NCBI GenBank assembly: GCA_963745135.1
Contig: CAVUWW010000013.1
Location: forward strand, 1 to 52,838
Source: an uncultured bacterium
GTDB lineage: Bacteria > Patescibacteriota > Minisyncoccia > UBA6257 > 2-01-FULL-56-20
Direction: 5' to 3'
Length of the DNA stretch: 52,838 bases
Translations under genes and position numbers: made by a program
The notes under the pieces: model-generated
What the model was told of the DNA's origin: nothing
Seen by the model: the letters and a program-made list of their open reading frames with translations, nothing else
Databases searched by the model: none
Part shown: one piece after another, positions 4,366-34,966 of the stretch
Numbering within the stretch: position 1 is the first letter of the stretch
Layout of the letters: each line of letters begins with the position of its first letter

Positions 4366-5451
4366 ATGCAATCTTCTTTTAATCTTTTCCGGCGCACGTT
4401 TTCCGGCTCCTGCCTCGGCGTGGACATCGGTACGACTTCCATCAAGATTGTCGAAGTGGCGGGCGGCAAGGAGAAGCCGGCGGTCCTGAACTACGGGCTT
4501 TTGGAATCGAGCGGCTATCTTGCGCGGTCGAACCAGGCGTTCCAGACGAGCAGCTTAAAAATCTTCGAGGCGGAGGTCGCGGAGCTCTTAAGGGCGCTCG
4601 CGCGGTCGGTGCGGGCCGGGACCAAGAACGCGATCGCGTCCCTGCCGGTGTTCTCGGCGTTCACGACCGTGCTCGACTTCCCGCAAATGCCGCCGCAGGA
4701 GATTGAGCAGGCGCTCATTTTCCAGGCGCGGCAGTACGTGCCGTTGCCGCTTTCGGAAGTTTCGCTCGATTGGCTGAAGGTGGGCGAGTACGAGGACGAC
4801 AAGGGTTTCGCGCACCAGAAAATATTCCTGACTTCGATTCCCAACGAGCAGATAAAAAAATACCAGAATATGTTCGCCGCAGCCGGATTGCATCTGGTCG
4901 CGCTCGAGCTCGAAAGCTTGAGTTTGGCGAGATTGTTCGGCAACGATTCCACGCCCACAATCCTCGTGGACATCGGCAGCCGCTCGACGGACATCGTGTT
5001 CCTCGAGTCCGGCAATCTCGTCTGGAACGCGCAGAGCGATTTCGGCGGCGCGTCGCTCACGCAGGCCTTGGCCTCAAGCTTGGGCGTGAACCCGCTGCGC
5101 GCGGAGGAATTGAAGAAGGAGCGCGGCATCCTTGGCACCGGCCCAAGCTATGAGTTGTCCACAATCATGCTTCCGTTCGTGGATGTTATAATAAATGAGG
5201 TGAAGAAAGCCGATTTCGCTTACCGGCAGCAGTTCCCCGCCGCGAAAAAAGCGGAGCGGGTGATGCTCGCTGGCGGCGGCGCGAACTTGCTTGGCATCGA
5301 GAAATATTTCGAGCGCGAGTTCGGCGTCCCTGCAGTGAAGGCCGCGTCCTTCGTCAGGTTCGGCTATCCGCAGGAGATGGAGCCGCTCGTCCCCGAGCTG
5401 AATCCGCTGATGAGCGTGGCACTGGGGTTGGGGATGAGGAATTTCGTGTAG
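4366..5451 (+). CDS. pilM: type IV pilus assembly ATPase-fold protein PilM
   Basis: 361 aa with an actin-like fold signature CLGVDIGTTSIKIVEV and DIGSRSTDIVF. It is the first gene of the pilus operon. Confidence 0.85.
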   Translation: MQSSFNLFRRTFSGSCLGVDIGTTSIKIVEVAGGKEKPAVLNYGLLESSGYLARSNQAFQTSSLKIFEAEVAELLRALARSVRAGTKNAIASLPVFSAFTTVLDFPQMPPQEIEQALIFQARQYVPLPLSEVSLDWLKVGEYEDDKGFAHQKIFLTSIPNEQIKKYQNMFAAAGLHLVALELESLSLARLFGNDSTPTILVDIGSRSTDIVFLESGNLVWNAQSDFGGASLTQALASSLGVNPLRAEELKKERGILGTGPSYELSTIMLPFVDVIINEVKKADFAYRQQFPAAKKAERVMLAGGGANLLGIEKYFEREFGVPAVKAASFVRFGYPQEMEPLVPELNPLMSVALGLGMRNFV

Positions 5452-5549
5452 GCATACGAATGTACGAATCGGTACGAATATACGAATAGGAAATCAAAAA
5501 AATTAATCTCCCATTCGTATATTCGTAAAAATTCGTAAATTCGTATGCC
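5451..5549. repeat. inverted array hairpin, GGCATACGAAT...ATTCGTATGCC family
   Basis: 4 TACGAAT units, a loop, then 4 ATTCGTA units. It starts at the last base of the pilM stop codon and contains the next ATG (5545) in its last 5 nt. Confidence 0.85.
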
Positions 5550-6141
5550 ACTACCGCAACAAGTCGTCGAAAAATTGAGCCGCGAGCCGATTAAGACGCC
5601 CGGATGGTCGGGCGGGGTTTTGTTCTATTCGGGCGTGCTTTTGGCCGTGGTCGTCGTCATTTACGCCGGACTTTCGTTCGTGTACGCGCCAATCCTGAAT
5701 GCGCGCATCGCGGGCGCCGAAAGCAAAATTTCCGCATTGAGCAATACGATTTCCGCGTCGGACGAGCAGCAGCTTGCCACCTATTATTCCCAGATATCGA
5801 ACCTCCGCTTGCTCATACAGAACCACATCGTCCTTTCACCGTTTTTCGCGTGGCTCGAAGGGCACACGGAAGCGAACGTCTCCTATGCCAACTTGAATTT
5901 TTCTGCGGGGAACCAGGTTGCGCTCACGGCGACCGCGCTAACGGAAGCCGACGTGAACCAGCAGGTCGCGATTTTCCAGGCGGCGCCGGAAGTGAAGATG
6001 GTGAATGTTTCCAACCTTTCGTTCGTCGCGACGAACAATATGTGGCAGTTCAGTGTGTCCCTCGTGATGCAGCCGTCAATGTTCACGTGGCAGCCGCAGG
6101 GCGGCGCGGCGACAGGATCGGCGACGTCGAGCGGGCAGTGA
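5545..6141 (+). CDS. PilN-like single-pass pilus assembly protein
   Basis: 198 aa with one N-terminal TM helix (VLFYSGVLLAVVVVIYAGL) followed by a coiled region. It sits directly after pilM. Confidence 0.55.
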   Translation: MPLPQQVVEKLSREPIKTPGWSGGVLFYSGVLLAVVVVIYAGLSFVYAPILNARIAGAESKISALSNTISASDEQQLATYYSQISNLRLLIQNHIVLSPFFAWLEGHTEANVSYANLNFSAGNQVALTATALTEADVNQQVAIFQAAPEVKMVNVSNLSFVATNNMWQFSVSLVMQPSMFTWQPQGGAATGSATSSGQ

Positions 6142-6148
6142 TGAAGAA

Positions 6149-6201
6149 GGGTCTGGGGTCTAGGGTATAGTGAACCCCAAACCCCAAACCCCAAACCCTA
6201 C
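6149..6201. repeat. inverted array hairpin, GGGTCT/GGGTAT vs ACCCCAA units
   Basis: Sequence gggtctggggtctagggtatag-tg-aaccccaaaccccaaaccccaaaccctac. It fills the gap between stop 6141 and ATG 6204. Confidence 0.8.
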
Positions 6202-6816: not shown

Positions 6817-6902
6817 GGGTATGGGGTATAGGGGATAGGGTATAGTGAAGAAATTCCGTACCCTATACCCTATACCCTATGCCCTATGCCCTATACCCTA
6901 CC
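6817..6902. repeat. inverted array hairpin, GGGTATR / ACCCTAT family
   Basis: Left arm gggtatggggtataggggatagggtatag, loop tgaagaaattccg, right arm (taccctat/gccctat) x6. The ATG at 6904 follows 1 nt later. Confidence 0.85.
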
Positions 6903-6903: not shown

Positions 6904-7203
6904 ATGGCAATCATTGTCGAAGAGGAAAAAACAAGCTCGGGGATCATCAGCTTTTTGGGCTGGGCGTCCATCATCGCGATCCTCGCCGTTGCGGCGTATT
7001 ACGGGTTCCTTGCGCCCGCGCCTCTGGTGGTCGTAGCCCCTCCCGCCGATTTGAATAACTTGCTTTCCATTTCAAGCGCCGGTTTGAACGCAAACAGTAT
7101 TTTGCAGGGCGCTGAATTCCAATCGCTTGCGCAACACGTGCCGGAGCCCTCCGCCACCGGTCCTGCGGGAGTCGGGAGAACGAATCCGTTTGTGGCTCCG
7201 TAG
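6904..7203 (+). CDS. small membrane protein in the pilus operon
   Basis: Start moved to MAIIVEEEK (ATG 6904), directly after the hairpin. One TM helix (IISFLGWASIIAILAVAAYYGF). Confidence 0.5.
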   Translation: MAIIVEEEKTSSGIISFLGWASIIAILAVAAYYGFLAPAPLVVVAPPADLNNLLSISSAGLNANSILQGAEFQSLAQHVPEPSATGPAGVGRTNPFVAP

Positions 7204-7204
7204 T

Positions 7205-7293
7205 AATCGCGAATATCGCGAATGAGCGCAAATAACGCGAATAAAACAAAACCACCATTCGCATTATTTGCTTTGATTCGCGTTATTCGCGAA
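7205..7293. repeat. inverted array hairpin, CGCGAAT / ATTCGCG units
   Basis: Left arm aatcgcgaatatcgcgaatgagcgcaaataacgcgaat, right arm attcgcattatttgctttgattcgcgttattcgcgaa. The ATG at 7301 is 7 nt downstream. Confidence 0.8.
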
Positions 7294-7300
7294 CACTCCT

Positions 7301-9030: not shown

Positions 9031-9150
9031 ACCAGCTACCAGCTGCTGGCGACCAGTCACCGATACTCATGGATTTGAGTTTTCATATGATACAATAAGA
9101 GTAATAATTTTGGATTTAGCTGGTAGCTGGTAGCTGGTAGCTGGTAGCTA
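9031..9150. repeat. inverted array hairpin, CCAGCTA / TAGCTGG units with a ~60-nt loop
   Basis: Left arm accagctaccagctgctggcgaccag. Right arm is (tagctgg) x4.7. The ATG at 9160 is 9 nt downstream. Confidence 0.8.
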
Positions 9151-9159: not shown

Positions 9160-10234
9160 ATGGACGACTTCAAGCAAAAACTAAACGACCTGCTCACCGC
9201 CACGGCGCGGCAGAACGCTTCCGACCTCCACATCGCCGTCGGCAAGCGGCCGACGTTGCGTATTGACGGGGTTCTCGTGCCGCTCCAGAAGGAGCCGGTC
9301 TTGACGCCCGAGATGGCGGAGGGAATCATCGGCGCGATGATATCGCCCGAGCAGAAAGAGAGGCTTGCGAAGGACCGGCAGGTGGACTTCGCCTACAGCT
9401 TCGAGGACAAGGCGCGGTTCCGCGTGAACGCTTTCTACCAGCGGGGGTATCTGGCTGCGGCATTGCGTTTGGTTCCCGGGCGCGTGAAGGACATTGAAGA
9501 GCTGAACCTGCCGCCGCTCCTGCACGACTTTACGAAACTTTCCCAAGGTTTCATTTTGGTCGTGGGTCCGGCGGGGCATGGCAAATCCACAACGCTCGCC
9601 GCGATGATCGACGAGGTGAACCACACCCGCTCCGACCATATCATCACGATCGAGGATCCGGTGGAATATCTCTTTACGCAGGACAAGTGCATCGTCTCCC
9701 AGCGCGAGGTGGGAAGCGACACCATTGGCTTCCACGCCGCGCTCCGGACCGTCCTGCGGCAGGATCCCGACGTCATCATGATCGGCGAGATGCGCGACGC
9801 GGTCTCGATTGACACTGCGATGACGGCGGCCGAGACCGGCCACTTGGTGCTCGCAACGCTGCATACTAATTCCGCCGCGCAGACAATCGACCGAATCATT
9901 GACTCGTTCCCCGCCGAGCAACAGGGGCAATGTCACTTCGCAATTGGCGGCCACCTTGGTTGCTATAGTTTCAGAGCGGCTTTTGCCGCGCATCTCCGGC
10001 GGCCGCGTGCCTGCGCTCGAGATCATGATTGTGAACCCCGCCATCCGCAACCTGATCCGCGAGCGCAAAGTGTATCAGATTGACTTGGTGATTGAGACCA
10101 GCTTGCAGGAAGGCATGGTAACGCTGAACCGGTCGCTCGCGAATTTGGTGAAGAACAAAGAAGTGACGCTCGAGAACGCAGAGCTGTATTCATTGAATCC
10201 TGCCGAGTTGAGGATTTTGCTGGAGAGGATGTAG
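9160..10234 (+). pseudogene. pilT: twitching-motility ATPase PilT, interrupted by a +1 frame break
   Basis: ORFs 9160..10083 (Walker A GPAGHGKST) and 9899..10234 (RISGGRVPALEIMIVNPAIRNLIRE) are two halves of one PilT. Deleting one G of the GGGG run at 9924..9927 fuses them. Confidence 0.8.
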
Positions 10235-10240: not shown

Positions 10241-10310
10241 GTTATCAGGTTATAAAGTTATCAGGTTATCAGGTAGGAATTTAACTTTAAAAACCTGATA
10301 ACTTGATAAC
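10241..10310. repeat. inverted array hairpin, GTTATCAG / CTGATAAC units
   Basis: Left arm gttatcaggttataaagttatcaggttatcaggt, right arm acctgataacttgataac. The ATG at 10319 is 8 nt downstream. Confidence 0.8.
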
Positions 10311-10318
10311 TTTCAACC

Positions 10319-11530
10319 ATGAAGTTCAAGTATCAGGCCCGAACCAAAGAAGGGGAGCTCCAAGTCGGCATCATTGACGCCGGCTCGCGCGACGCAGCTT
10401 TGCAGATTTTGGCGGGGCACGAGCTTTACACCTTGAGCGTCGAGACGGCAACGGCGCCGCAGTGGTACGACCGGATCGGGGAATTTTTCGGCCGCGTCAG
10501 GCGCCGGGATCTCGTCATCTTTTCGCGCCAGCTTGCGACGCTCCTCGAGGCGCGCCTGCCCTTGAACAACGCCTTGCGCGTGCTCCATGAGCAGACCGTG
10601 AACGCGCGGCTCAAGGAGGGGATTTTGCAGATGTCCCAGGACATTGACGCCGGGCTTTCGTTTTCGCAGGCGCTCGAGCACCAGGGGCGCATGTTCCCTT
10701 CATATTACATGGAGATGGTGCGGGCGGCGGAGGTGACAGGGAATCTTGCCGAGATATCGGGCTTCCTCGCCGATTACACGGAGCGCGAAGGCGACCTCGC
10801 GAGCAAGGCGTCTTCGGCGATGATCTATCCGGGCATCGTCCTTGGGCTTTTTCTCGTCGTCGGTTTCATCCTGCTCACATTCGTCTTTCCGCAGATTAAG
10901 CCGGTCTTCGACCAGAGCGGCGTGACGTTGCCGTGGTACACCGCGTTTTTCTTGGGGGCGGGCACTTTCATGCAGCAATGGTGGCCGGCGATAATTGTGG
11001 CGGCGTTCGTGCTTGGGGTTGTTGTCTTTGATTATTTCCGCACGCCCGAAGGCATTGCGCTGTTCGACGACCTGAAGATCCGCCTGCCGGTTTTGCAGAA
11101 AGTTTTTTTGCCGCTCCTCATGGCGCGGTTCGGGAATTCGGCGGAGCTTCTGATCCATGGCGGCGTCCCGCTCGCGCAAGCGCTCGAGATCATCAGCCAC
11201 ATGATGGGGAATGTCTTGTACGAGGACGTGGTGCACCAGGTTGCGGAGGACGTGCGGCAGGGGAAATTGCTATCGGAAAGTTTGGCGGACTACCCGCGCT
11301 ATTTCCCGATCATGGTGCCGCAGATGGTGTCGGTCGGCGAGACGACAGGAAAGATTGAGGAGATGTTTGGGCGTCTTTCGAAGATCTATACGCGCGAGGC
11401 AAACCAGACGATGGACAACCTGGTGGACCTCATCCAACCCATTCTCATGATTGGCATGGGCGCGATGGTGGGACTTTTGTTCGCATCAATTCTCGTGCCG
11501 CTCTACCAGCTGACGGCGAGCATACATTAA
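10319..11530 (+). CDS. pilC: type IV pilus platform protein PilC (T2SS F family)
   Basis: 403 aa with duplicated T2SSF-type domains and three hydrophobic segments. Confidence 0.9.
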   Translation: MKFKYQARTKEGELQVGIIDAGSRDAALQILAGHELYTLSVETATAPQWYDRIGEFFGRVRRRDLVIFSRQLATLLEARLPLNNALRVLHEQTVNARLKEGILQMSQDIDAGLSFSQALEHQGRMFPSYYMEMVRAAEVTGNLAEISGFLADYTEREGDLASKASSAMIYPGIVLGLFLVVGFILLTFVFPQIKPVFDQSGVTLPWYTAFFLGAGTFMQQWWPAIIVAAFVLGVVVFDYFRTPEGIALFDDLKIRLPVLQKVFLPLLMARFGNSAELLIHGGVPLAQALEIISHMMGNVLYEDVVHQVAEDVRQGKLLSESLADYPRYFPIMVPQMVSVGETTGKIEEMFGRLSKIYTREANQTMDNLVDLIQPILMIGMGAMVGLLFASILVPLYQLTASIH

Positions 11531-11534: not shown

Positions 11535-11747
11535 GGGTATGGGGGATAGGGTATAGGGTGAAGAGAAGAAAGAAGAATTTGCCCTGTGGATAACAAGAGA
11601 AGTTACGCGGTTTGACAATGATATACTTAAATAAATATCAAAAAGGTCGAGAAAGTTACTGAAAAATCAGATTAAAAAAAGAAAAGGGCTAGGAATTTTG
11701 GGCTTGGATTGAATATCTATACCCTATACCCTATACCCTATACCCTA
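11535..11747. repeat. GGGTATR / ACCCTAT inverted arrays separated by a ~155-nt A/T-rich spacer
   Basis: Left arm 11535..11560 and right arm 11717..11747, which is (ctatacc) x4. The pilin ATG at 11748 abuts the right arm. Confidence 0.75.
11612..11641 (+). promoter_or_regulatory. possible pilin promoter (TTGACA, 17-18 nt spacer, ATATCA/TATCAA)
   Basis: Perfect -35 TTGACA at 11612..11617 inside the spacer of the split hairpin. The -10 box is weak. Confidence 0.3.
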
Positions 11748-12295: not shown

Positions 12296-12303
12296 GTTGG
12301 ATT

Positions 12304-12394
12304 TTACGAAAGTACGAATACAGTACGAAAATACGAATATCCATCACAGTGCAGGTTATTCGTATTTTCGTAAATAATTCGTAATTTCGTAAAC
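12304..12394. repeat. inverted array hairpin, TACGAAW / WTTCGTA units
   Basis: Left arm ttacgaaagtacgaatacagtacgaaaatacgaatat, right arm ttattcgtattttcgtaaataattcgtaatttcgtaaa. Confidence 0.8.
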
Positions 12395-13989: not shown

Positions 13990-14062
13990 GGGTATAGGGT
14001 ATGGGGTATAGGGTATAGTGAAACCCTAGACCCTAGACCCTAGACCCTAGACCCTAGACCCT
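13990..14062. repeat. inverted array hairpin, GGGTATR x4 / ACCCTAG x6
   Basis: Sequence gggtatagggtatggggtatagggtatag-tg-aaaccctag(accctag)x4 accct. The ATG at 14063 abuts the right arm. Confidence 0.9.
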
Positions 14063-14612: not shown

Positions 14613-14671
14613 GGGTATGGGGTATAGGGTATAGTGAAACCCTAAACCCTAAACCCTAAACCCTAAACCCT
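14613..14671. repeat. inverted array hairpin, GGGTATR x3 / ACCCTAA x5
   Basis: Sequence gggtatggggtatagggtatag-tg-aaaccctaa(accctaa)x3 accct. The ATG at 14672 abuts the right arm. Confidence 0.9.
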
Positions 14672-15277: not shown

Positions 15278-15363
15278 AATCCTTAATCCTTAATCGTTAA
15301 TCCTTGACTAAAAATTTCGATTCCCTAGCGTTGTAATTGTTTAAGGATTAAAGATTAAGGATT
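15278..15363. repeat. inverted array hairpin, CCTTAAT / ATTAAGG units, between convergent genes
   Basis: Left arm aatccttaatccttaatcgttaatcctt, right arm aaggattaaagattaaggatt. It exactly fills the gap between stop 15277 and stop 15366. Confidence 0.8.
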
Positions 15364-15365: not shown

Positions 15366-16478
15366 TCAAATCTCCATCGTCCCATCCGCTTCCAGTTTGT
15401 ATTTTTTCTTTCTTAAAAACGCCATATATCCCGCGGCGCCGATCATGGCGGCGTTGTCGAGGTTGTATTTGAAATCGGGGACGAGAAATTGCACGCCAAT
15501 GAGTCCGGCCATGCGCTCCATGCTTTTTCGGAGTGCCTTATTCGCCGCGACGCCACCGCAGAGGATAATTGATTCCGCCGCGCATTCTTCAGCGGCTCGG
15601 CGTGTTTTCGCGACGAGCACGTCGATGGCGGCCTGTTGGAAGGAAGCGGCAACATCTGAGAGGCGGGAGGCGGGAGAAGGGAGAGGGGAGGAGAAATTCA
15701 TCTTCCGTCTTCCGTCTCCCATCTCCCTTAGGTAATAAAGAACCGCCGTCTTCAATCCCGAAAAACTAAAATCGTAATTCTTCTGGTCCAGCATCGGGCG
15801 CGGGAAAGTGATGGCGAATGGATTGCCTTTTTTCGCGAGTTTTTCGATTTCCGGCCCGCCGGGATAGGGAAGGTCGAGCAACCTCGCCACTTTATCGAAT
15901 GCCTCGCCGGCCGCGTCGTCGCGCGTCTCGCCGAGCCGCTCCCATTTCGAGAACGATTCCATGCGGAGCAAAATCGTGTGTCCGCCGGAGACGATGAGCG
16001 CGATCGCGGGGAACAGGGACGAGGGGCGAGTAGTGAGTAGGGAGGTATAACCCTTTAAGGATCTTGACGGAAGCAAGAAACTGTAAAGATGGCCTTCGAG
16101 ATGGTTCGCGCCGATGAGACGAGGGAGAGGAGAGAGGGGAGAAGGGAGAAGGGATTTCCGTATTTTTTTTGCAAATTCAATTCCTGTCCACAGTGCAGGT
16201 TCTAGCCCTGGTCCTACAGTAACTGCAATAATATCAATTTTTTTCTCCATCCCTCCTCCCTCCTCCCCTCTCAACCTCTCCCAAAGCAATGGCAAATTCT
16301 TCAAATGTTCCCGCTTTGCCAAATTCGGAACCACGCCGCCGAACGGTCGGTGGATCTTGATTTGCGAGGCGACCAGATTTTTTAAAATCTTAAAACGCGG
16401 ATTCTTCAATCCGCCGGAAGCGTCGAGCAAAGCGATGCCCGTCTCGTCGCAGCTCGTTTCGATGGAGAGGATTTTCAT
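15366..16478 (-). CDS. tsaD: tRNA N6-threonylcarbamoyladenosine synthesis protein TsaD
   Basis: 370 aa with KILSIETSCDETGIAL, VGPGLEPAL and NHLEGH. It carries low-complexity inserts encoded by purine/pyrimidine heptamer arrays. Confidence 0.9.
   Translation of the reverse strand: MKILSIETSCDETGIALLDASGGLKNPRFKILKNLVASQIKIHRPFGGVVPNLAKREHLKNLPLLWERLRGEEGGGMEKKIDIIAVTVGPGLEPALWTGIEFAKKIRKSLLPSPLSPLPRLIGANHLEGHLYSFLLPSRSLKGYTSLLTTRPSSLFPAIALIVSGGHTILLRMESFSKWERLGETRDDAAGEAFDKVARLLDLPYPGGPEIEKLAKKGNPFAITFPRPMLDQKNYDFSFSGLKTAVLYYLREMGDGRRKMNFSSPLPSPASRLSDVAASFQQAAIDVLVAKTRRAAEECAAESIILCGGVAANKALRKSMERMAGLIGVQFLVPDFKYNLDNAAMIGAAGYMAFLRKKKYKLEADGTMEI
15661..15728. repeat. intragenic inverted arrays (GGGAGAR / TCTYCCS heptamers) inside tsaD
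   Basis: Left arm aggcgggaggcgggagaagggagaggggaggag, loop aaattca, right arm tcttccgtcttccgtctcccatctccct. Translated in frame as ..GDGRRKMNFSSPLPSPAS... Confidence 0.75.
16121..16282. repeat. intragenic purine array and pyrimidine array flanking the conserved TsaD GPG core
   Basis: Purine array gagggagaggagagaggggagaagggagaaggga at 16121..16154. Pyrimidine array tctccatccctcctccctcctcccctctcaacctctccc at 16244..16282. Confidence 0.65.
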
Positions 16479-16485
16479 AGGGTAT

Positions 16486-16597
16486 AGCCACTAGCCAATA
16501 GCCACTAGTGAATGATTAGCCACTAGTACCTAGCCAATAGTGAGTTTAATTCCTTTTAGAGTTTACGCTAGTCGCCAGTGGCTAACAACTAGTGGCT
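16486..16597. repeat. inverted array hairpin, GCCACTA / TAGTGGC units, upstream of tsaD
   Basis: agccactagccaatagccactagtg and tagccactagtacctagccaatagtg face gctagtcgccagtggctaacaactagtggct. On the tsaD strand the last arm ends 7 nt before ATG 16478. Confidence 0.8.
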
Positions 16598-17545: not shown

Positions 17546-18314
17546 ATGGCAAGAGTCATCGCGGTTTGCAACCAGAAGGGCGGTGTGGGGAAGACCACGA
17601 CCTGCACTTCACTCGGCGCTTACCTCGCGCTCGCCGGACGACGGGTGCTTTTGATTGACTTTGACCCGCAGGCGAACGCGAGCTCGGCTTTCGGGGCACC
17701 ATTATGCGAACGTGATGAAGAGCATCTATCACGGCATCATCGGTGCGGCGTCGCCCGAGGAGATCACGAAGCCGACCGCGATCTACAATTACCATTTGAT
17801 CCCCGCCGCGCCGCATTTGGCGGGGATGCTCATCGAGCTTGTGGGCGAGCCGGAGCGGGAATACTTTTTGCGGAAGTTCGTGAACCGCGTGCGGCACGAG
17901 TACGATTACATTCTGATTGACCTGCCGCCGAGCTTGAGCTTGCTCACCGTGAACGGGCTTGTCGCCGCGGACGAGGTCATCATCCCGGTTCAGGCGGAGT
18001 ATTACAGCTTGGAGGGCATCGGGCAGCTGCTCGAAACGATTGAGCTTATCAGGAATAATTTGGGGCATCCGATCCGCGTTTCGGGCGCGCTGATTACGAT
18101 GTATAATAAGCGGGAGCACTTGAGCCGCGAAGTGGCGAAGAACCTACGCGACCATTTCCCGCATCGCGTGTTCGAAGTTGAGATTCCGCGCAGCATTGCG
18201 CTCGCTGAAGCCCCAAGCTACGGCATGCCGATCCTGCTCTACCGCCCGGATTCGAACGGTGCGGCGGCGTATAAAAAATTGGCGGAGGAAATTATAAGAG
18301 AAGAAAGGGCATAG
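17546..18314 (+). pseudogene. parA: chromosome partitioning ATPase ParA/Soj, interrupted by a +1 frame break
   Basis: [18 protein letters not shown] (deviant Walker A) is in one frame and [14 protein letters not shown]... to the end is in the +1 frame. Deleting one G of the GGGG run at 17693..17696 fuses them. Confidence 0.8.
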
Positions 18315-18358
18315 GGTGCAGAACTCTTAACCCCAGACCCTAAACCCCAGACCCTAAA
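18307..18358. repeat. inverted array hairpin, GGGCATAGGGTG / ACCCYAR units
   Basis: The loop gcagaactctt is shared with the element at 30484. The left arm overlaps the parA stop and the right arm abuts the parB ATG at 18359. Confidence 0.75.
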
Positions 18359-19414
18359 ATGCTAGGAAAAGGTTTGGAATCATTGATTCCCCAAAAAAGC
18401 GGCGGCAACGGCGACAATAACGACAGTCATGACGACGGGCAGATTTCCGTGCCGCAAGACGTGAATTCAAGTCTGGCGCCTGTGGATGAGCCGGAGGACA
18501 TGGGTCTCGGGTCTAGGGTCTCGGGTCTAGGGGAAGAGAAAAAATCAGAAACCCTAAACCCAAGACCCCAGACCCTAAACCCTAAGCCCGAACAAATTTT
18601 CGGTTCGATATTCCAGATTGAAGTTGACAAGATCTCGCCGAACCCGGACCAGCCGCGGCGGCATTTCGACGAGACGGCTTTGCACGACCTTGCGCGTTCC
18701 ATCCGCGAGTTCGGTTTTCTCCAGCCGCTCGTAGTCTCGAAAATCGAAAAGGAATCGCCGACGGGCATTGACGTCGAATACCAGCTCATCGCCGGCGAAC
18801 GGCGTTTGCTTGCGGCGAAATTGCTTGGCTTGCGGCTCGTGCCTGCCATTATCAGGAACGTCCATCTCGAGCGTGAAAAATTGGAGCTTGCCGTCATCGA
18901 GAACATCCAGCGCGAGGACTTGAATCCCATCGAGACCGCGCACGCGTTCCAGCGGCTGCAGGAAGAGTTTCGCATGACCCAGCGCGAGATTGCGGCGAAG
19001 CTCGGCAAGTCGCGGGAAGTTGTCGCGAATACCGTGCGGCTGCTCGACCTGCCGGAATATATCCAGGAGGCGGTCCAGAAAGGGGATCTGTCCGAAAGCC
19101 ATGCGCGCTTGCTGCTTTCGATCGGCGATCCGGGCGCGCAGAAAAGGTTGTTCGACGACATTTCCCTGAACCGCCTCACGACGCGCGATGTGAAGGAGCG
19201 CGTGAAGCAGATTGCAAAGCCACGCGAGCCGCGCGAAGGAGCGGAAATCTCGCCGGAGCTGAAAGCCATGCAGGAGTCATTGAGTTCAGCCCTCGGTGCG
19301 CCGGTCGAGATCCATAAAGGAGCGAACACCGGAAAGATCACGATTGTATTTTATTCGCAGGAAGAGCTGGAGAACATTTTGCAGAAATTGAAAAGCGGGG
19401 AGGGAAATCAATAA
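18359..19414 (+). CDS. parB: chromosome partitioning protein ParB/Spo0J
   Basis: 351 aa with N-terminal GKGLESLIP, ParB box ISPNPDQPRRHFDE and LIAGERRLLAAK. It carries an in-frame repeat-element insert. Confidence 0.9.
   Translation: MLGKGLESLIPQKSGGNGDNNDSHDDGQISVPQDVNSSLAPVDEPEDMGLGSRVSGLGEEKKSETLNPRPQTLNPKPEQIFGSIFQIEVDKISPNPDQPRRHFDETALHDLARSIREFGFLQPLVVSKIEKESPTGIDVEYQLIAGERRLLAAKLLGLRLVPAIIRNVHLEREKLELAVIENIQREDLNPIETAHAFQRLQEEFRMTQREIAAKLGKSREVVANTVRLLDLPEYIQEAVQKGDLSESHARLLLSIGDPGAQKRLFDDISLNRLTTRDVKERVKQIAKPREPREGAEISPELKAMQESLSSALGAPVEIHKGANTGKITIVFYSQEELENILQKLKSGEGNQ
18502..18589. repeat. GGGTCTM / ACCCTAA-type hairpin element inserted in frame inside parB
   Basis: Left arm gggtctcgggtctagggtctcgggtctagggg, loop, right arm aaaccctaaacccaagaccccagaccctaaaccctaagccc. 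Translated as GLGSRVSGLGEEKKSETLNPRPQTLNPKP. Confidence 0.85.
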
Positions 19415-19958: not shown

Positions 19959-21680
19959 CTAGATTAATCTGTAGCTCGCTTCCTTCACTCCCCTTATCGC
20001 TTTCAATTTCAAAATCAGCTTTTCGATTTTCGCCTTGTCTGTGGATTGGATCTCGATCTTGTCGAACGGGTAGCGGCTGCCTTTGGCGTTGTCGGAATGG
20101 AAGGCGAGGATGTTCATGTGGCTGCGCGCGATCGTGCTCGAGAGGTCTTTGATGAGCCCGACGCGGTCCTCGACGGCGATTTTCAGTTCACAACGGTTAG
20201 CCACCGGCCACCGGCCACCGGCCACCAGTTTTTTACGCTTTCCCGCCGCCCGAATATGGTCCTTCGCGACGCCCGTTGCGACGAATTTGAGCCAGTCGTT
20301 TGACGGTTTCTTCCCTTTTTGCGTGATGATTTCCACCATGTCGCCGGAGCGGAGCTTATGGTCGAGCGGCACGAGCGTTCCATTCGCTTTCGCGCCCACC
20401 GCCGCATCGCCGATCTCGGAATGGACGTGGTAGGCGAAGTCCACCGGCGTCGAGCCCGCCGGCAGGTCAATCACGTCGCCGTGCGGCGTGATGGCGAAGA
20501 TGCGGTCCTTGAAGAAATCGATCTTCATCGCGCGCACGAACTCGTCCGGGTCGGATGCCGCCTCGTTCCCGACATGGTCTTGCCAATTCTTCAGCTGTTG
20601 CACCCACTCAAGCTCTTTCGCAAGTTTTTTCCCGCTTATTTGATTTCCTCGCCCCTCGCTGCTTGCCCCTTGTCTCTGTTTATACAACCAATGTGCCGCG
20701 ACGCCGTACTCGTTCTCTTCGTGCATCTCCTTTGTGCGGATTTGGAACTCGATGATTTTCTCGTCCGGGCCGATGACGGTCGTGTGCAGGCTGCGGTACG
20801 CGTTCGGCTTCGGCATCGCGATGTAATCCTTGATGCGCCCGGGCAGCGGCGGCCACGCGTCGTGGATCAGGCCCAAGACGGCGTAGCATTCGGGGATGGT
20901 TTCCACGATGACGCGCATCGCGACGAGATCGTAGATTTTCCCGAGGTCCACGCCGTAGCGCAGAAGTTTCTTATATAAGCTGCTGTAGCGTTTCGCGCGG
21001 AAATCGATGGCGAGCGGGCGGATATTGTTTTTTTTGAGCAACGCTTCAACTCCTGGCTTCAATTTTTCCAAGTACGCGAGCCGCTCCCTGTATTGCTCTT
21101 TCGTCGTGTCGAGCAGCCACCGGTATTCTTTGGGGTGCAGGAACGGGAACGCAAGGTCCTGCAGTTCGCCGCTCAAATTTTGCATGCCGAGACGGTAGGC
21201 CAAGGGACCGTAGATCTCGTCGGTCTCGAGCGCAATGCGCTTCTGTTTTGCGGGCGGGAGCGCGGCGAGCGTTCGCATATTATGGAGCCGGTCGGCGAGT
21301 TTAATGAAGACGACGCGCAAGTCCTGGCTTAACGCCAAGATCATCTTTCTCATGTTTTCTGCGATATTTTCTTTCCCGCGATATTTCACGCGGCCGAGCT
21401 TCGTCATGCCGTCCACGAGGAAGGCGATCTCGTCGCCAAATTCTTTTTTCAGATCATCGAGCGAAACGCCGGTGTCCTCTACCGTGTCGTGCAGCAGCCC
21501 CGCCGCGACCGTCGCGTCATCCATGTGCCATCCGCTCAAAATTTCCGCCACAGCGGCCGGGTGGCTGAAGTACGGCTCGCCACTTATGCGCTTCTGCCCG
21601 CGGTGCGCGCGTTCGGCGAAGGCGTAGGCCTTGGCTATGATTCCCGTGGGATTTTGCCTGATGAGGTCTTTCAGGGGCAT
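19959..21680 (-). CDS. relA: bifunctional (p)ppGpp synthetase/hydrolase (RelA/SpoT homolog)
   Basis: 573 aa with an HD domain (HRGQKRISGEPYFSHP, HDTVEDT), a synthetase region, and TGS- and ACT-like C-terminal domains. Confidence 0.9.
   Translation of the reverse strand: MPLKDLIRQNPTGIIAKAYAFAERAHRGQKRISGEPYFSHPAAVAEILSGWHMDDATVAAGLLHDTVEDTGVSLDDLKKEFGDEIAFLVDGMTKLGRVKYRGKENIAENMRKMILALSQDLRVVFIKLADRLHNMRTLAALPPAKQKRIALETDEIYGPLAYRLGMQNLSGELQDLAFPFLHPKEYRWLLDTTKEQYRERLAYLEKLKPGVEALLKKNNIRPLAIDFRAKRYSSLYKKLLRYGVDLGKIYDLVAMRVIVETIPECYAVLGLIHDAWPPLPGRIKDYIAMPKPNAYRSLHTTVIGPDEKIIEFQIRTKEMHEENEYGVAAHWLYKQRQGASSEGRGNQISGKKLAKELEWVQQLKNWQDHVGNEAASDPDEFVRAMKIDFFKDRIFAITPHGDVIDLPAGSTPVDFAYHVHSEIGDAAVGAKANGTLVPLDHKLRSGDMVEIITQKGKKPSNDWLKFVATGVAKDHIRAAGKRKKLVAGGRWPVANRCELKIAVEDRVGLIKDLSSTIARSHMNILAFHSDNAKGSRYPFDKIEIQSTDKAKIEKLILKLKAIRGVKEASYRLI
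20201..20228. repeat. intragenic tandem heptamer CCACCGG x4 inside relA
   Basis: Sequence ccaccgg ccaccgg ccaccgg ccaccag, encoding LVAGGRWPVA on the gene strand. Confidence 0.9.
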
Positions 21681-21697
21681 GAGCTTATCTTATAGCA

Positions 21698-21726
21698 GCC
21701 ACTAGCCACTAGCCAATAGCCACTAG
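21698..21726. repeat. single tandem array GCCACTA x4 upstream of relA
   Basis: Sequence gccacta gccacta gccaata gccacta. Same unit as the tsaD-upstream hairpin, but no inverted partner is seen. Confidence 0.8.
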
Positions 21727-21740: not shown

Positions 21741-21790
21741 GAAGGCGGTCCTCAAATCTCCAAAGAAGACCGCCTTCGTTTTCCCTTTTT
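21741..21790 (+). terminator. orphan terminator-like hairpin
   Basis: Stem gaaggcggtcctc / gaagaccgccttc followed by gttttcccttttt. There is no upstream plus-strand gene. Confidence 0.45.
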
Positions 21791-22361: not shown

Positions 22362-23063
22362 ATGCTTACTCATGGAACCGCCTCGCAACTTCATGTTGAC
22401 GGGGGATACGTTGAATTTCAACAGGCAGTGCTTCGCGCCCTGCCTCACGACATCGATCCGAACATCGCCGACGGGTGGCGAAACAACACGGGAGCGCTCG
22501 CAAAAGTTTTGCGCGAGGCCCTGCTTCCGCCGGACAATCCCGCAACGGAAGCCGCTCCGGTTCCCAAGCCCGAACCGCAACCGCTCCTCATCCCCGTCTG
22601 CACGGAGAAGGTTTTCCCGAGAGTGGCTTTCACGGCTCGCGACCGCTTCGTCGTAAACACGAAGAAGAACGCACCCGTGAAGATCTCCTATCTGGGAGAC
22701 AACTTCAAGGCGTGGTTCCTCGGCAAAGAGGAGCAACCGTTTGCGGGATCGACCCTCAACTGCAGCAAGCTCTCGCGCTACTCCGTCGACGGCCCGATTA
22801 TCAAGGAACTCGGCGGCGAGGAAAAGGCCGAGACCACGCTCGCCGAACTCTTTTCGCTCATGGAAATGCAGAAGAACGGCGAAAGCGGTGCGCTGCTCAC
22901 AAACGGATACGCCAATATCTTTTACATCAAGGATACGGCCGGCGGTCTCCGGACGGTGGACGCGCGCTGGGGCGGCGTCGGCTGGCTCGTGCACGCCTTC
23001 GCCGTGGCGCACCCGTACGAGTGGAGCGACGGGTGCCGGGTCTTCTCCCGCGATTCTCGTTAG
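22362..23063 (+). CDS. DGR target protein (variable C-terminus, no signal peptide)
   Basis: Start moved to ATG 22362, preceded by AAGGAGG at -13..-7. The last 38 codons form the VR. The C-terminus ..WGGVGW...YEWSDGCRVFSRDSR is like C-type-lectin-fold DGR targets. Confidence 0.8.
   Translation: MLTHGTASQLHVDGGYVEFQQAVLRALPHDIDPNIADGWRNNTGALAKVLREALLPPDNPATEAAPVPKPEPQPLLIPVCTEKVFPRVAFTARDRFVVNTKKNAPVKISYLGDNFKAWFLGKEEQPFAGSTLNCSKLSRYSVDGPIIKELGGEEKAETTLAELFSLMEMQKNGESGALLTNGYANIFYIKDTAGGLRTVDARWGGVGWLVHAFAVAHPYEWSDGCRVFSRDSR
22939..23052 (+). other. DGR variable repeat (VR)
   Basis: Gap-free alignment to 23667..23780. All 23 mismatches are at adenines of the template copy. Confidence 0.9.
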
Positions 23064-23111
23064 CACTCGGTCGCTTTGCCCTTTTAACCCTTGGACACTC
23101 TGTCCCTTTGA

Positions 23112-23150
23112 CCCCCGCATCTTCTTCGGAAGCGGCGGGGGTTTTCTTTT
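23112..23150 (+). terminator. intrinsic terminator after the DGR target gene
   Basis: Stem cccccgc / gcggggg followed by ttttctttt. Confidence 0.7.
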
Positions 23151-23151
23151 G

Positions 23152-23160
23152 TGCTATGAT
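23152..23160 (+). promoter_or_regulatory. extended -10 box TGcTATGAT upstream of the structured RNA and TR
   Basis: gTGcTATGAT is the same 10-mer as at 13394..13403. Confidence 0.45.
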
Positions 23161-23195
23161 AAATCACGAAGGCAATGAATTCTGCGGAACGGCTA

Positions 23196-23465
23196 GACCC
23201 CTATCTCGAAAATAATTCAGCTCGCGTTGCGAGCGATTTTGTCCGAGAGCTAGGCAGGACAAGGAGGCAATAGTTTTTACTATGGCTCCGCAGTCCTAAC
23301 GACGCGATCGGACAAAATCGCCGCAACCCTCTGGGATCTGGCCAAATGCCACAATGGCTGCGTTGCTTCGGGTTCGCAGTACCATGAGGTACAGCTTCAC
23401 CCTCGCGCCTTGCCCTTGTGGCATTTGGCCGAGATCGCGGGCGAATTATTTTCGAGATAGGGGTC
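23196..23465 (+). ncRNA. unclassified structured RNA, copy B (inside the DGR cassette)
   Basis: Perfect 23-bp closing helix (23196..23218 with 23443..23465) followed by a U-run. Conserved core blocks and covarying helices relative to copy A. Confidence 0.7.
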
Positions 23466-23666
23466 TTGTTTTTCCGCCATGCCTTCGGGAAAACGCTCTG
23501 CCGGAATCACGTCGGGTACGCTTGCCGTGAGTGCGCAGGACGGAGTACTCTTACGCAACATACGAGAATTGGTATCTGCGGCTGGCGGACTTCTACGTCC
23601 CGAATACGATACAGTCCTGAGAGTAATCGAAGGGCAGTGGCGCGGATGGCCGCGGATACGAGACGA

Positions 23667-23780
23667 CCGGCGATCTCCGGACGGTGAACGCGAACTGGAA
23701 CGACGACGGCTGGAACGTGAACGCCAACGCCGTGACGAACCCGAACGAGTGGAACGACGAGAACCAGGTCTTCTCCCGAA
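23667..23780 (+). other. DGR template repeat (TR)
   Basis: In the VR frame it reads TGDLRTVNANWNDDGWNVNANAVTNPNEWNDENQVFSRN. Every Asn codon is AAC. Confidence 0.9.
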
Positions 23781-23791
23781 ACTGTCGTATG

Positions 23792-24144: not shown

Positions 24145-24158
24145 AAGCTGGGAACTGC

Positions 24159-24169: not shown

Positions 24170-24188
24170 TACGTGAAAATTTGAATCC

Positions 24189-29794: not shown

Positions 29795-29806
29795 TGTGGT
29801 AAGTGG

Positions 29807-29929
29807 GGCATACGAATTTACGAATCGGTACGAATATACTAATAAGATTAGTAGCGGAACCATTCCAAACATTCGTGTACCCATTCTGAATTATTCGTAT
29901 ATTCGTACAAATTCGTACATTCGTATGCC
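29807..29929. repeat. GGCATACGAAT...ATTCGTATGCC hairpin element (long-loop copy)
   Basis: Same termini as 5451..5549. The lepB ATG at 29925 lies inside the terminal ATTCGTATGCC. Confidence 0.85.
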
Positions 29930-30479
29930 CATGCGCAAATTCCTCGCCTCGCTCCTCGAAGTCCTGGAAATCGCGGCAATCGCCGTCGCCGCCGTCTTCA
30001 TCGTGCGCACGTTTCTTGTCCAGCCGTTCTTGGTCAGCGGCACGAGCATGTATCCCACTTTTTCGAACGGCGATTACGTTTTGGTTGACGAGCTGACCTA
30101 CCGCATCCGGCCGCCGGAGCGCGGCGAGGTCATCGTATTCCACGATCCCGAGGATTATTCCACGTATTTCATCAAACGCATCATCGGCCTGCCGGGCGAG
30201 AAAGTGGTTTTGCATAACAGCACCGTCACGGTCTATAACAGCGCGAACCCGAACGGCCTCGTGCTTGACGAATCGTATCTGCCGCCGGGGACGGTTACTT
30301 CGGGAGACCAGACCTACGTGCTTTCTTCAAGCACGTACTTGATGTTCGGCGACAACCGGCCGTTCAGCTACGATTCGCGCAGCTGGGGGCCGCTGCCGAC
30401 GAAGAACATCGTCGGCCTCGTGCGCGTCCGCCTGTGGCCGGTGACCGCGATCACCGCGTTCGCCGCGCCGAAGTATTGA
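29925..30479 (+). CDS. lepB: signal peptidase I
   Basis: Start moved to MPMRKF. Contains the catalytic Ser box SGTSMYPTF, the KRIIGLPGE Lys box and GDNRPFSYDSR. Confidence 0.9.
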   Translation: MPMRKFLASLLEVLEIAAIAVAAVFIVRTFLVQPFLVSGTSMYPTFSNGDYVLVDELTYRIRPPERGEVIVFHDPEDYSTYFIKRIIGLPGEKVVLHNSTVTVYNSANPNGLVLDESYLPPGTVTSGDQTYVLSSSTYLMFGDNRPFSYDSRSWGPLPTKNIVGLVRVRLWPVTAITAFAAPKY

Positions 30480-30483: not shown

Positions 30484-30560
30484 GGGTATAGGGTTTCGGG
30501 TATAGGGTATAGGGTGCGGAACTCTTGACCCTAGACCCTAGACCCTTGACCCTAGACCCT
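30484..30560. repeat. inverted array hairpin, GGGTATA / ACCCTAG family
   Basis: Left arm gggtatagggtttcgggtatagggtatagggtg, loop cggaactctt, right arm gaccctagaccctagacccttgaccctagaccct. The ATG at 30565 follows 4 nt later. Confidence 0.85.
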
Positions 30561-34899: not shown

Positions 34900-34966
34900 G
34901 GGTATAGGGTCTAGGGTATGGGGTATAGGATACCCTAAACCCTAAACCCTAAACCCTAAACCCTAA
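34900..34966. repeat. inverted array hairpin, GGGTATR x4 / ACCCTAA x5
   Basis: Sequence gggtatagggtctagggtatggggtatagg-a-taccctaa(accctaa)x4. The secF ATG at 34967 abuts the right arm. Confidence 0.9.

Follow-up and report, generated by a model that had tools for sequence, protein, structure and literature searches.

The stretch of DNA analysed here (the window; 52,838 nucleotides) is a chromosome segment of a small-genome bacterium (Patescibacteria/Paceibacteria) that carries a type IV pilus operon, parAB, secDF and hisS. A sequence-only reading had listed nine copies of a GGGTAT/ACCCTA element in it, eight intergenic and one intragenic, and all nine are found where it placed them. They are given below by coordinates and strand, with the predicted energy of the RNA hairpin; this set is called the G family.

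6149..6201, plus strand: hairpin from the 198-aa gene in the pilN position (5545-6141) to pilO; G arm 6149-6170 (GGGTCTG/GGGTCTA/GGGTATA), loop TAGTGA, C arm 6173-6201 ((ACCCCAA)3 ACCCTAC); three G runs only; -24.3 kcal/mol, z -2.4.
6817..6902, plus strand: hairpin from pilO to a 99-aa gene (start 6904); G arm 6817-6845, C arm 6859-6902 with units (ACCCTAT)/(GCCCTAT); -52.3 kcal/mol, z -7.4.
11535..11564, plus strand: G arm of a split element, 4 nt 3' of the pilC stop.
11717..11747, plus strand: C arm of the split element ((CTATACC)4.4), adjoining the pilin ATG at 11748.
13990..14062, plus strand: hairpin between two minor-pilin genes, the copy highlighted in the earlier reading; G arm 13990-14018 (4 units), loop TAGTGAA, C arm 14023-14062 ((ACCCTAG)5 ACCCT), then ATG 14063; -38.9 kcal/mol, z -4.0.
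14613..14671, plus strand: hairpin between minor-pilin genes; G arm 14613-14634 (3 units), lacking a G-quadruplex (G4) motif, loop TAGTGAA, C arm 14639-14671 ((ACCCTAA)4 ACCCT), then ATG 14672; -28.6 kcal/mol, z -3.7.
18307..18358, plus strand: weak copy from parA to parB; two G units only, loop GGGTGCAGAACTCTT, C arm 18330-18358; -12.2 kcal/mol, z -1.2, not significant.
18502..18589, plus strand: intragenic copy, in frame and stop-free, within the variable ParB linker (about residues 48-77); G arm 18502-18532 (GGGTCTC/GGGTCTA), C arm 18549-18589; -46.1 kcal/mol, z -4.7.
30484..30560, plus strand: hairpin from lepB (signal peptidase) to hisS; G arm 30484-30515 (5 units), loop GGGTGCGGAACTCTT, C arm 30527-30560; -47.2 kcal/mol, z -5.5.
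34900..34966, plus strand: hairpin from secD to secF; G arm 34900-34929, C arm 34932-34966 ((ACCCTAA)5), then ATG 34967; -42.7 kcal/mol, z -5.7.

That this is a hairpin-forming family sited exactly at stop/start junctions is borne out, and its arrays are far above chance. Matches at no more than one mismatch number 36 for ACCCTARACCCTA and 24 for GGGTATRGGGTAT, with 0.00 expected (100 shuffles); predicted RNA hairpins of -24.3 to -52.3 kcal/mol (z = -2.4 to -7.4) are found in seven of the eight contiguous copies. By Tandem Repeats Finder both arms of most copies are arrays of period 7, the exceptions being the G arms at 18307 and 18502; the units given are AGGGTAT, ACCCTAG and AAACCCT. The left arm begins 4-10 nt past the upstream stop in the intergenic copies (8/8), counting 18307, which overlaps its stop: the parA TAG lies within the first unit (GGGCATAGGG). 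The right arm of all eight ends 0-4 nt ahead of an ATG; downstream of the 6817 copy the true start is 6904 (MAII..., in agreement with the orthologue in the relative L002), not 6886. An AGAA or GAA flank precedes the G arm in most copies, and two loops recur, TAGTGAA in four copies and GGGTGCRGAACTCTT in two. The uniform (CCCTAAA)n C arm that had been described does not hold: only 14613 and 34900 carry (ACCCTAA)n, whereas 13990 and 30484 have (ACCCTAG)n, 6817 and 11717 have (ACCCTAT)n, and 6149 has (ACCCCAA)n. The G arms of the nine copies have 3, 4, 4, 4, 3, 2, 5, 5 and 4 units; the C arm is the longer arm in seven of the nine, and the sense-strand order is GGGTATR then ACCCTAR in 8/8. Because the non-repetitive loops and the AGAA flank are common to copies, the copies are best described as dispersed repeats.

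The G family is one among at least six families in this genome built as a tandem 7-9-nt array followed by its own inverted array. The sister units TACGAAT, CGCGAAT, GTTATCAG, ACCAGCT and AATCCTT contain no G runs at all; members in the window are these.

4225-4303: TGCGAAT hairpin, related to the CGCGAAT family.
5451..5549, plus strand: TACGAAT(N) array hairpin from pilM to the next gene, with ATG 5545 inside the right arm's last unit.
7202..7298, plus strand: (A/T)CGCGAAT array hairpin upstream of pilB.
9031..9149, plus strand: ACCAGCT/TAGCTGG array hairpin from pilB to pilT, split by a 63-nt spacer bearing a TGATACAAT box.
10245..10322, plus strand: GTTATCAG array hairpin from pilT (true stop 10234) to pilC.
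12303-12393, 25725-25811, 27512-27604 and 29806-29930: near-identical TACGAAT copies.
15278..15363, no strand assigned: AATCCTT/TTAAGGA array hairpin between the convergent genes pilin (plus) and tsaD (minus), with both stop codons adjoining the arms.
29806..29930, no strand assigned: TACGAAT-family hairpin between the divergent genes pth (minus) and lepB (plus), with both start codons contained in the arms (CAT 29809-29811, ATG 29925-29927).

All families together fill about 20 spacers between 3 and 35 kb; the junctions occupied are co-directional, divergent and convergent, and in-frame copies lie in the parB linker and in loops of TsaD. A point to be set beside this distribution is that divergent, convergent and intragenic hairpins cannot bridge a stop and a start. 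In the split elements (11535/11717 and 9031/9149) one arm is at the stop and the other at the ATG, with an older, promoter-bearing spacer between them. The ~150 nt that separate the arms of the former hold the ancestral conserved pilin promoter/leader core (CTGTGGATAAC...TTGACA...TATACT...AAAGGTCGAGA), which is kept in relatives that have no arms; complementary arrays at such a distance are something that the explanation preferred below does not account for.

Comparison with relatives reveals fast turnover. The flanking genes are housekeeping genes, syntenic in relatives, and at ancestral pilin-pilin junctions the genes stand 7 nt or 4 nt apart, or overlap: the spacer orthologous to the 13990 junction is 7 nt in L001 and 'CCCT' in L074, and the L001 orthologues of the genes flanking 14613 overlap by 4 nt. 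G-family hairpins are missing at the orthologous junctions of L073 (PilC 93% identical), L001 (83%) and L004 (74%); at these junctions L002 (84%) and the syntenic L138 (ParB 78%) bear hairpins built from other units, and L138 has one at lepB/hisS that differs from that of the window. No second genome with the same G-family locus was found, the best relatives standing at 93% (PilC), 78% (ParB) and 57% (pilin); the 93% relative is a 2.2-kb contig without the arms, and orthologous arms therefore cannot be aligned. Variation at short range is visible between L002 and L003, near-identical contigs from two samples with four differences over 9.2 kb: the single indel is exactly 21 nt (3 units), inside a sister-family array, and two of the three substitution sites likewise fall within arrays. 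Over 613 kb of related DNA, period 7 dominates the tandem arrays (46, against 9 hexamer arrays), in 33 unit classes.

The GGGTATR/ACCCTAN hairpin itself is found at 67 loci in other genomes, spread over more than 10 phyla. Arms with two G units occur at 22 of these loci, three at 14, four at 22 and five or more at 9; the C arm is the longer in 34 and the G arm in 16. In other genomes the order GGGTATR then ACCCTAR lies on the sense strand of the flanking genes in 18 cases (++) against 4 (--). Phage-borne spread finds no trace in 2.9 million viral contigs (0 matches). Random slippage does not account for the occurrence of an identical unit pair in so many phyla.

The sequence-only reading had gone further, and supposed that hairpin and G4/i-motif are alternative folds that could act as a switch at the junction. 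The canonical intramolecular G4 motif is four runs of at least three G, spaced 1-7 nt. The claim that the G arm fits it is correct in part: the example arm matches G3N4 x4, and six of the nine copies fit G3N3-4 x4, but those at 6149, 14613 and 18307 do not. The closest known repeats, the GGGAATC/GGGGAYT heptamers, form G4 in vitro and prefer four units, and competition between hairpin and G4/i-motif has already been discussed for that near-identical class (Rehm 2015, PMC4692102); G3-4N3-4 heptamers moreover recur in several phyla. Against this stand the energies. With the ViennaRNA quadruplex model, the G arm by itself reaches -8.4 to -9.6 kcal/mol in each of the six copies that have the motif, and the full element -22 to -51 kcal/mol as RNA and -10 to -25 kcal/mol as DNA; G4 never appears in the minimum-energy fold when both arms are present. 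The predicted advantage of the hairpin is 13-42 kcal/mol, so that in silico it is overwhelmingly the more stable fold, the outcome which the earlier reading had itself named as telling against a switch. Fewer than four G units are present in 3/9 arms here and in 36/67 elsewhere, and an RNA i-motif is in any case unlikely at neutral pH. The switch is left unsupported also because sister families of like architecture and placement have no G runs whatever; across the 613 kb of related DNA only 11 of the 46 period-7 arrays have a G3 or C3 run. A junction switch is thus very improbable. A transient G4 could still form prior to transcription of the C arm, or in transcripts that hold the G arm only; under the explanation preferred below, the quadruplex competence of some G arms would be incidental to one unit sequence.

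Several known classes of element do not accommodate these sequences. Rfam 15, at the gathering threshold, finds only three tRNAs in the window. A REP/BIME would be a palindrome of 20-40 nt headed by GTAG or CGTC, in a genome with a RAYT (TnpA-REP) gene; that assignment fails, as the elements start with (A)GAAGGGT and have no GTAG/CGTC head. Among the 30 window ORFs scanned with Pfam there is no transposase. A MITE is not indicated: empty sites in relatives (L001 tgaATTTCAAatg; L074 taaCCCTatg), set against tgaATTTGAA[element]atg in the window, reveal no target-site duplication. The integron attC site is defined as an imperfect palindrome with R''/R' cores (RYYYAAC...GTTRRRY), lying between mobile promoterless cassettes; by eye, the element sequences have no GTTRRRY core, and their flanks are syntenic housekeeping genes. 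Nor are these intrinsic terminators: no element is among the 21 terminator-like sites (a count equal to that in shuffles), and right arms are followed by ATG, not by a T run.

A broader likeness does exist. REP/BIME, Correia (CREE/nemis), ERIC and Rickettsia palindromic elements (RPEs) are also multi-copy imperfect intergenic palindromes, co-transcribed with operons, and Liang, Rudd and Deutscher reportedly found in 2015 that a REP has an effect on the terminating ribosome if it lies no more than about 15 nt from the stop codon. Correia hairpins in operon transcripts are cut by RNase III, and RPEs insert in frame into protein-coding genes (review PMC10969869). The present elements differ in that each arm is itself a run of tandem 7-9-mers, which slips by whole units; no terminal inverted repeat with target-site duplication, and no associated RAYT or transposase, is seen; and turnover is much faster. 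The Correia precedent lends some weight to a role in mRNA processing or stability, in the manner of REP/BIME, Correia or T7 RNase III sites, in which the hairpins would serve as RNase III cleavage sites or as barriers to 3'-5' exonucleases, and would thereby divide operon mRNAs into segments and set how stable the cistrons are relative to one another. Stems of 20-30 bp do lie between cistrons and between convergent genes, and L002 and L138 have hairpins directly 3' of pilC, ahead of the pilin promoter. Yet there is no U tract or terminator consensus, the helix is broken by a mismatch every 7 bp, intragenic copies would expose essential mRNAs to cleavage, and presence in relatives is patchy; this role is distinctly unlikely.

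Translation in this genome supplies another context. A Shine-Dalgarno (SD) motif is absent ahead of almost every gene in the window, which also speaks against an SD-like reading of the AGAAGGG flank. A TGnTAnnnT box lies 6-8 nt upstream of the ATG in at least 12 genes, and genes that run in the same direction meet at junctions that are short or overlapping, bridged by a hairpin, or furnished with a leaderless-type -10 box. One may then suppose that the hairpins are selected intercistronic RNA devices: an adaptive bridge from stop to start, either shunt-like or coupling termination to reinitiation, or a gate that ties the downstream cistron strictly to translation of the upstream one. The junction pattern fits, as does the adjacency of arms to stop and ATG even around older spacers of ~150 nt and 63 nt; pairing predominates at positions -9 to -1 before the AUG when an element is there (unpaired probability 0.07-0.62); hairpins are kept at corresponding junctions in the window, L002 and L138 despite differing sequences; and gene orientation is biased 18:4. 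Elements at divergent and convergent junctions and within ORFs do not fit, nor do the close relatives that manage without them. Selection on RNA pairing was assessed by comparing G-U pairs with A-C mismatches and sense with antisense folding energy: the sense strand folds better in 15 cases and the antisense in 14, and the G-U pair count is 71 against 95. Pairing specific to sense RNA is thus not favored, and complementarity appears to be maintained at the DNA level. Selected RNA devices are possible, if rather unlikely.

Four G-family copies have TATAGT at the loop, a sequence also used as a -10-like box for the gene at 52067. The element might then be a promoter-plus-leader cassette, in which the last G unit and loop (GGGTATAGT) would supply the -10 box and the C arm a G-free 5' leader without structure. 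However, neither the other five copies nor the sister families have the motif, and no -35 element or TG extension accompanies it; a sigma-70 consensus scan places no promoter within any element, and the hits are not above shuffles. Such a cassette is highly improbable.

The C arm invites one further proposal, that the arrays are sites for a sequence-specific protein, either a nucleoid or regulatory DNA-binder or an S1/Csp/CsrA-like RNA-binder on a G-free (ACCCUAR)n leader. ACCCTA(N0-3)ATG recurs, also behind a TACGAAT hairpin (27609) and ahead of tsaD; the C arm tends to be longer than the G arm; and the GGGTATR/ACCCTAN unit is found across phyla. Protein binding was proposed for the TAACTGA arrays of Beggiatoaceae, which likewise precede starts of genes without SD sites (MacGregor 2015, PMC4679880). 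On the other side, 33 unit classes in relatives and at least six families in one genome would call for many binding specificities, and a candidate protein was not found; binding sites are quite improbable.

Heptamer repeats at gene boundaries have a longer history; the cyanobacterial STRR (short tandemly repeated repetitive) sequences were reportedly described by Mazel et al. in 1990. The closest precedent is the set of GGGAATC heptamer inverted pairs of Xanthomonas. GGGNATC-type heptamer repeats occur in Xanthomonas and Nostoc, with 70-75 convergent inverted pairs per genome (Rehm 2015, PMC4692102). Like those, the present repeats are tandem intergenic heptamers with a G3-4 run (period 7 in the window, absent in shuffles); the G-rich array lies at most 50 bp after a stop and the C-rich array at most 50 bp before a start, on the coding strand (8/8 in the window); and convergent paired arrays can make a stem-loop (significant in 7/8 contiguous copies). 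Unit number varies between relatives in the Rehm repeats; here a 3-unit indel is seen only in a sister family. The differences lie in the unit (GGGTATR, not GGGAATC/GGGGAYT) and the phylum (Patescibacteria), in the pairing of nearly all copies so that they fill the whole stop-to-ATG spacer, in the co-existence of several non-G families of identical design with some copies in frame in genes, and in a four-unit preference that is not clear here. The TAACTGA direct repeats of Beggiatoaceae, Cyanobacteria and Bacteroidetes (MacGregor 2015, PMC4679880) are also intergenic heptamers, often a few nt ahead of starts without ribosome-binding sites, and also occur patchily across phyla, which suggests transfer or a shared mechanism; unlike the present arrays they have other unit sequences and are direct only (one indirect among 170 sets, in BOGUAY). 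A literature search found no published description of such elements in CPR/Patescibacteria.

The explanation preferred here, at about even confidence, is that the elements are dispersed heptamer-array palindromes of fast turnover, driven by slippage, near-neutral, and tolerated through the adjacency of stop and start. The unit of design would be a tandem 7-nt array, a short loop and an inverted array with one purine-purine mismatch per unit. Whole-unit replication slippage would lengthen or shorten the arrays (loops above about 4 nt evade mismatch repair), and intrastrand template switching or gene conversion would homogenise the two arms as well as separate loci; the process would act at the DNA level and would be essentially selfish or near-neutral. 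In an operon transcript the element would fold into an imperfect hairpin of 20-30 bp, its base 3-10 nt past the upstream stop and 0-10 nt ahead of the AUG. Given the lack of SD sites and the leaderless-type promoters of first cistrons, internal cistrons would need termination-reinitiation at very short junctions; a palindromic insert would be tolerated there because folding holds stop and start a few nt apart, and the terminating ribosome would melt the AUG-masking base of the stem. Orientation relative to genes (8/8; 18:4) and the longer C arm hint at strand-specific, possibly RNA-level selection, which pure neutrality does not predict.

A bolder form of these ideas treats the slippery hairpins as stop-start bridges in their own right. 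Stem-loops that juxtapose translation signals are known from the split ribosome-binding sites of phage T4 genes 38 and 25, the CaMV ribosome shunt and the T4 gene 60 bypass; in the CaMV shunt a short ORF ends a few nt ahead of the base of the stem. Similarly, as a geometric analogy only, the stem-loop here would bring the stop of the previous cistron beside the start; unlike those systems there is no SD, and those are single specialised sites where this is a genome-wide repeat family. A ribosome terminating 3-10 nt before the stem base would melt it and pass across to the AUG; insertions of 60-220 nt would then act as the ancestral 4-7-nt junction did, a prokaryotic analogue of ribosome shunting, and longer C-side arrays would permit register shifts that tune exposure of the AUG. 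More radically, a horizontally spread enzymatic activity might build heptamer-array palindromes of arbitrary sequence, which would explain the occurrence of multiple families in more than 10 phyla. This bolder form is unlikely and is offered as speculation.

Heptamer tandem repeats at gene boundaries had been noted in Xanthomonas (Rehm 2015, PMC4692102), and in cyanobacteria, Beggiatoaceae and Bacteroidetes (MacGregor 2015, PMC4679880). What is new is their abundance in Patescibacteria, where several families co-exist and turn over very quickly; the recurrence of the GGGTATA/ACCCTAA palindrome in more than 10 phyla; and the position of the elements, in an organism without SD sites, at spots where tightly coupled cistrons once touched. 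For annotation there are two warnings: the arrays yield false ATG starts (6886, for example), and they place in-frame low-complexity inserts in the essential genes parB and tsaD. The families also provide a comparative data set with which to ask if one shared mechanism makes these arrays, and they give a connection, concrete enough to be tested, from repeat insertion to translation reinitiation.

All nine copies of the G family (a GGGTATR array or G arm, a short loop, and an ACCCTAN array or C arm) listed by the sequence-only reading were found as described, with their recurring loops (TAGTGAA in four copies, GGGTGCRGAACTCTT in two), their AGAA or GAA flank, and a spacing of 4-10 nt from the stop and 0-4 nt from the ATG. 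The two-unit array patterns ACCCTARACCCTA and GGGTATRGGGTAT match the window 36 and 24 times at no more than one mismatch, where shuffles expect 0.00 for each; Tandem Repeats Finder resolves both arms of most copies as period-7 arrays. Folded as RNA, seven of the eight contiguous copies are imperfect hairpins (-24 to -52 kcal/mol; z = -2.4 to -7.4); the parA/parB copy at 18307, with two G units only, gives no significant fold (z = -1.2). Within every pair of heptamers, A stands opposite A or G, a single purine-purine mismatch that is missing only where the C arm is ACCCTAT; the C arm exceeds the G arm in length in seven of nine copies. One element is split, its GGGTAT and ACCCTAT arms lying at the two ends of the pilC-pilin spacer.

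Flanking genes, assigned with Pfam, are those of a type IV pilus operon (pilM, pilO, pilB, pilT, pilC, pilin, prepilin peptidase and three minor pilins) and tsaD, parA/parB, relA, pth, lepB, hisS and secD/secF; their homologues are in Patescibacteria (Paceibacteria/Minisyncoccia). An apparent frameshift of 1 nt near 9900 divides the pilT gene (9160-10234): ORF 9160-10083 encodes the N-terminal 307 aa, and ORF 9899-10234, in another frame, the C-terminal 107 aa, 91% identical to residues 251-357 of PilT in the related contig L002. Sequencing error, pseudogene formation or recoding could each explain the split. A diversity-generating retroelement occupies 22932-25339:

22932-23060: variable repeat, 129 nt, 79% identity to the template repeat
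23660-23788: template repeat, 129 nt
24189-25244: reverse transcriptase (RVT_1)
25216-25247 / 25308-25339: perfect 32-nt inverted repeat after the reverse transcriptase

Mismatches between the two repeats fall on adenines of the template copy in 24 of 27 cases, and the target ORF is probably that ending at 23215 on the + strand. No reverse transcriptase gene was called at the syntenic locus of the relative L138.

In nearly all spacers between 3 and 35 kb there is a hairpin with a tandemly repeated unit of 7-9 nt in one arm and the reverse complement of that array in the other. The sister families lack G runs:

Sister array families in the window
5451-5549, 12303-12393, 25725-25811, 27512-27604, 29806-29930: TACGAAT(N)
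4225-4303, 7202-7298: (T/C)GCGAAT
3333-3391: ACGGATTT
9031-9149: ACCAGCT
10245-10322: GTTATCAG
15278-15363: AATCCTT

These families are present at co-directional junctions and in other contexts. The convergent pilin/tsaD junction carries an array hairpin, the divergent pth(-)/lepB(+) junction has one with both start codons inside its arms, and arrays run in frame within genes, in the ParB linker (18502-18589) and the variable loops of TsaD. The TsaD arrays (- strand, 15660-15727 and 16116-16267) have GAGGCGG, CATCTCC, AGGGAGA and CTCCTCC units, with an array hairpin among them; in relatives these loops hold other low-complexity inserts, as in L002, whose TsaD has 405 aa. AGCCACT/AGTGGCT arrays, solitary or loosely paired and forming no full hairpins, precede the starts of tsaD and relA on the - strand (16485-16508 and 21697-21726); the unit recurs in L002 (84% relative) at 907-1015 and 9540-9673. 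The window also has repeats of another kind: a 13-nt palindrome, GAAGACNGTCTTC, is present eight times at no more than one mismatch (0.12 expected), often paired within larger hairpins close to gene ends:

3765-3841, 21765-21777, 33201-33230, 49492-49504, 49844-49881: GAAGACNGTCTTC palindrome

The last 17 kb (36000-52838) hold no array hairpins; spacers there are short or contain -10 boxes, GC is lower at 36-44 kb (0.48-0.53), and a tRNA at 43353-43426 (-) scores 46.6 bits with Rfam, ARAGORN giving undetermined identity and a two-base 'gt' anticodon reading.

We take it as established that the elements are palindromes built of heptamer arrays, dispersed and evolving fast, and that they change through slippage of whole units. 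L002 and L003, near-identical contigs from two samples, show four differences over 9.2 kb; one is a 21-nt indel of three heptamers within an array; of the three substitution sites, two likewise fall in arrays. These contigs (84%) and the syntenic L138 (ParB 78%) have array hairpins of different units at many of the same junctions; the L138 lepB-hisS hairpin begins tgaAGAAGGGG, as element 30484 does, the rest being unrelated. In L073 (PilC 93% identical) the pilC-pilin spacer is without GGGTAT/ACCCTAT arms and the pilT-pilC junction has an unrelated TACGAA-like hairpin. The core of the pilC-pilin spacer (CTGTGGATAAC...-35/-10...AAAGGTCGAGA) is conserved in all relatives; therefore, the two arms were added at its two ends in the window. 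At the sites of elements 13990 and 14613 the pilin junctions of L001 (83% relative) are 7-nt and overlapping, and L074 reads taaCCCTatg at the former, a possible seed for an ACCCTAN array. Tandem arrays in 613 kb of related DNA comprise 46 of period 7 (33 unit classes, a G3/C3 run in only 11), nine hexamer, three pentamer and two octamer; the density of array hairpins is uneven, at 3 per 10 kb in the window and in L002, and none in most relatives. A rival reading takes the elements as protein-binding arrays.

Scanning one genome per species for exact matches to GGGTATRGGGTAT-N3-33-ACCCTANACCCTA gave 67 loci (chance expectation ~0.07, our own estimate), about half in several classes of Patescibacteria, the others in Planctomycetota, Cyanobacteria, Bacteroidota, Elusimicrobia, Rickettsiales, Gammaproteobacteria, Nitrospirota, Gemmatimonadota, Fibrobacteria and others; viral contigs gave no matches. 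Genomes with the hairpin often have several copies, and other-unit array hairpins are present in 20 of the 67 8-kb loci. With the element set G arm first in GGGTATR units, flanking genes in these genomes run ++ at 18 loci and -- at 4. Because the hairpin reads G arm first on either strand, the bias is one of mismatch position only (purines on the sense strand). The asymmetry also involves arm length, the C arm being longer at 34 loci and shorter at 16.

The sequence-only reading proposed a switch between hairpin and G-quadruplex/i-motif at the stop/start junction, which we count among the rivals. In the window six of nine G arms have at least four G units, as do 31 of 67 from other genomes. 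Scored with the ViennaRNA quadruplex model, competent G arms alone reach -8.4 to -9.6 kcal/mol, complete elements -22 to -51 (RNA parameters) or -10 to -25 kcal/mol (DNA parameters), and the minimum-energy structure of every complete element is without a quadruplex. These folds and the G-free sister families lead us to drop the quadruplex as unifying property; it may still form transiently where there is no C arm.

Arm complementarity is strand-symmetric: the better-folding strand is sense RNA in 15 spacers and antisense in 14 (71 G-U pairs versus 95). Thus either complementarity of the arms is maintained in the DNA itself, or a single pair counts for little in stems of this length. A promoter or leader cassette is another rival; a scan of the window for promoter and terminator consensus sequences gave no match in the elements, nor did any of them match an Rfam family. 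Shine-Dalgarno sites are essentially unused in the window, almost no gene having the motif, and at least 12 genes have a TGnTAnnnT extended -10-like box ending 6-8 nt before the ATG:

12411, 19959-21680(-), 32663(-), 37785, 38221, 39822(-), 41285, 44959, 51195(-), 52067: examples of the ATGs concerned

The pattern recurs in L001 and L004, and suggests that leaderless mRNAs, of which such a box is the hallmark, are widespread. By our classification, co-directional junctions are very short or overlapping, hairpin-bridged (arms touching stop and ATG), or marked by a -10 box; two or three fall outside. Adaptive coupling devices are a rival here; in folds that include flanking coding sequence, the nine positions ahead of the AUG (-9 to -1) are largely paired, with a mean unpaired probability of 0.07-0.62. 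A non-periodic hairpin with 35-nt arms (31879-31965) fills the entire spacer from hisS to the next gene, 2 nt from stop and from ATG; stop-to-start bridging is thus not confined to array families.

Heptamer-array hairpins are an already known kind of element, given their close match to arrays of GGGAATC and GGGGAYT in Xanthomonas and Nostoc (Rehm et al. 2015, PMC4692102). In those genomes G-rich arrays follow stops within 50 bp on the coding strand and the C-rich side precedes starts, 70-75 convergent inverted pairs occur per Xanthomonas genome, unit number differs among species, and competition of stem-loop and G4 was explicitly raised as a possibility. TAACTGA arrays just before SD-less start codons are likewise patchy and cross-phylum (MacGregor 2015, PMC4679880). 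Precedents for likely effects are Correia elements, which are RNase III substrates, and Rickettsia palindromic elements, which are in-frame insertions (PMC10969869); RNase III or stability elements are among the rivals.

Our preferred reading is that these elements are largely selfish or near-neutral: acting on the DNA, slippage together with template switching or conversion would both create them and keep them homogeneous. Formerly tight junctions would tolerate such palindromes because folding away keeps stop and start adjacent, so that termination-reinitiation may be preserved in an SD-less organism. Three facts do not fit the neutral view: the asymmetries of orientation and of arm length, the existence of split elements, and a single unit that recurs across phyla. 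Our literature search found no description of such arrays for Patescibacteria; what is new is an operon saturated by multiple families and the link to SD-less translation.
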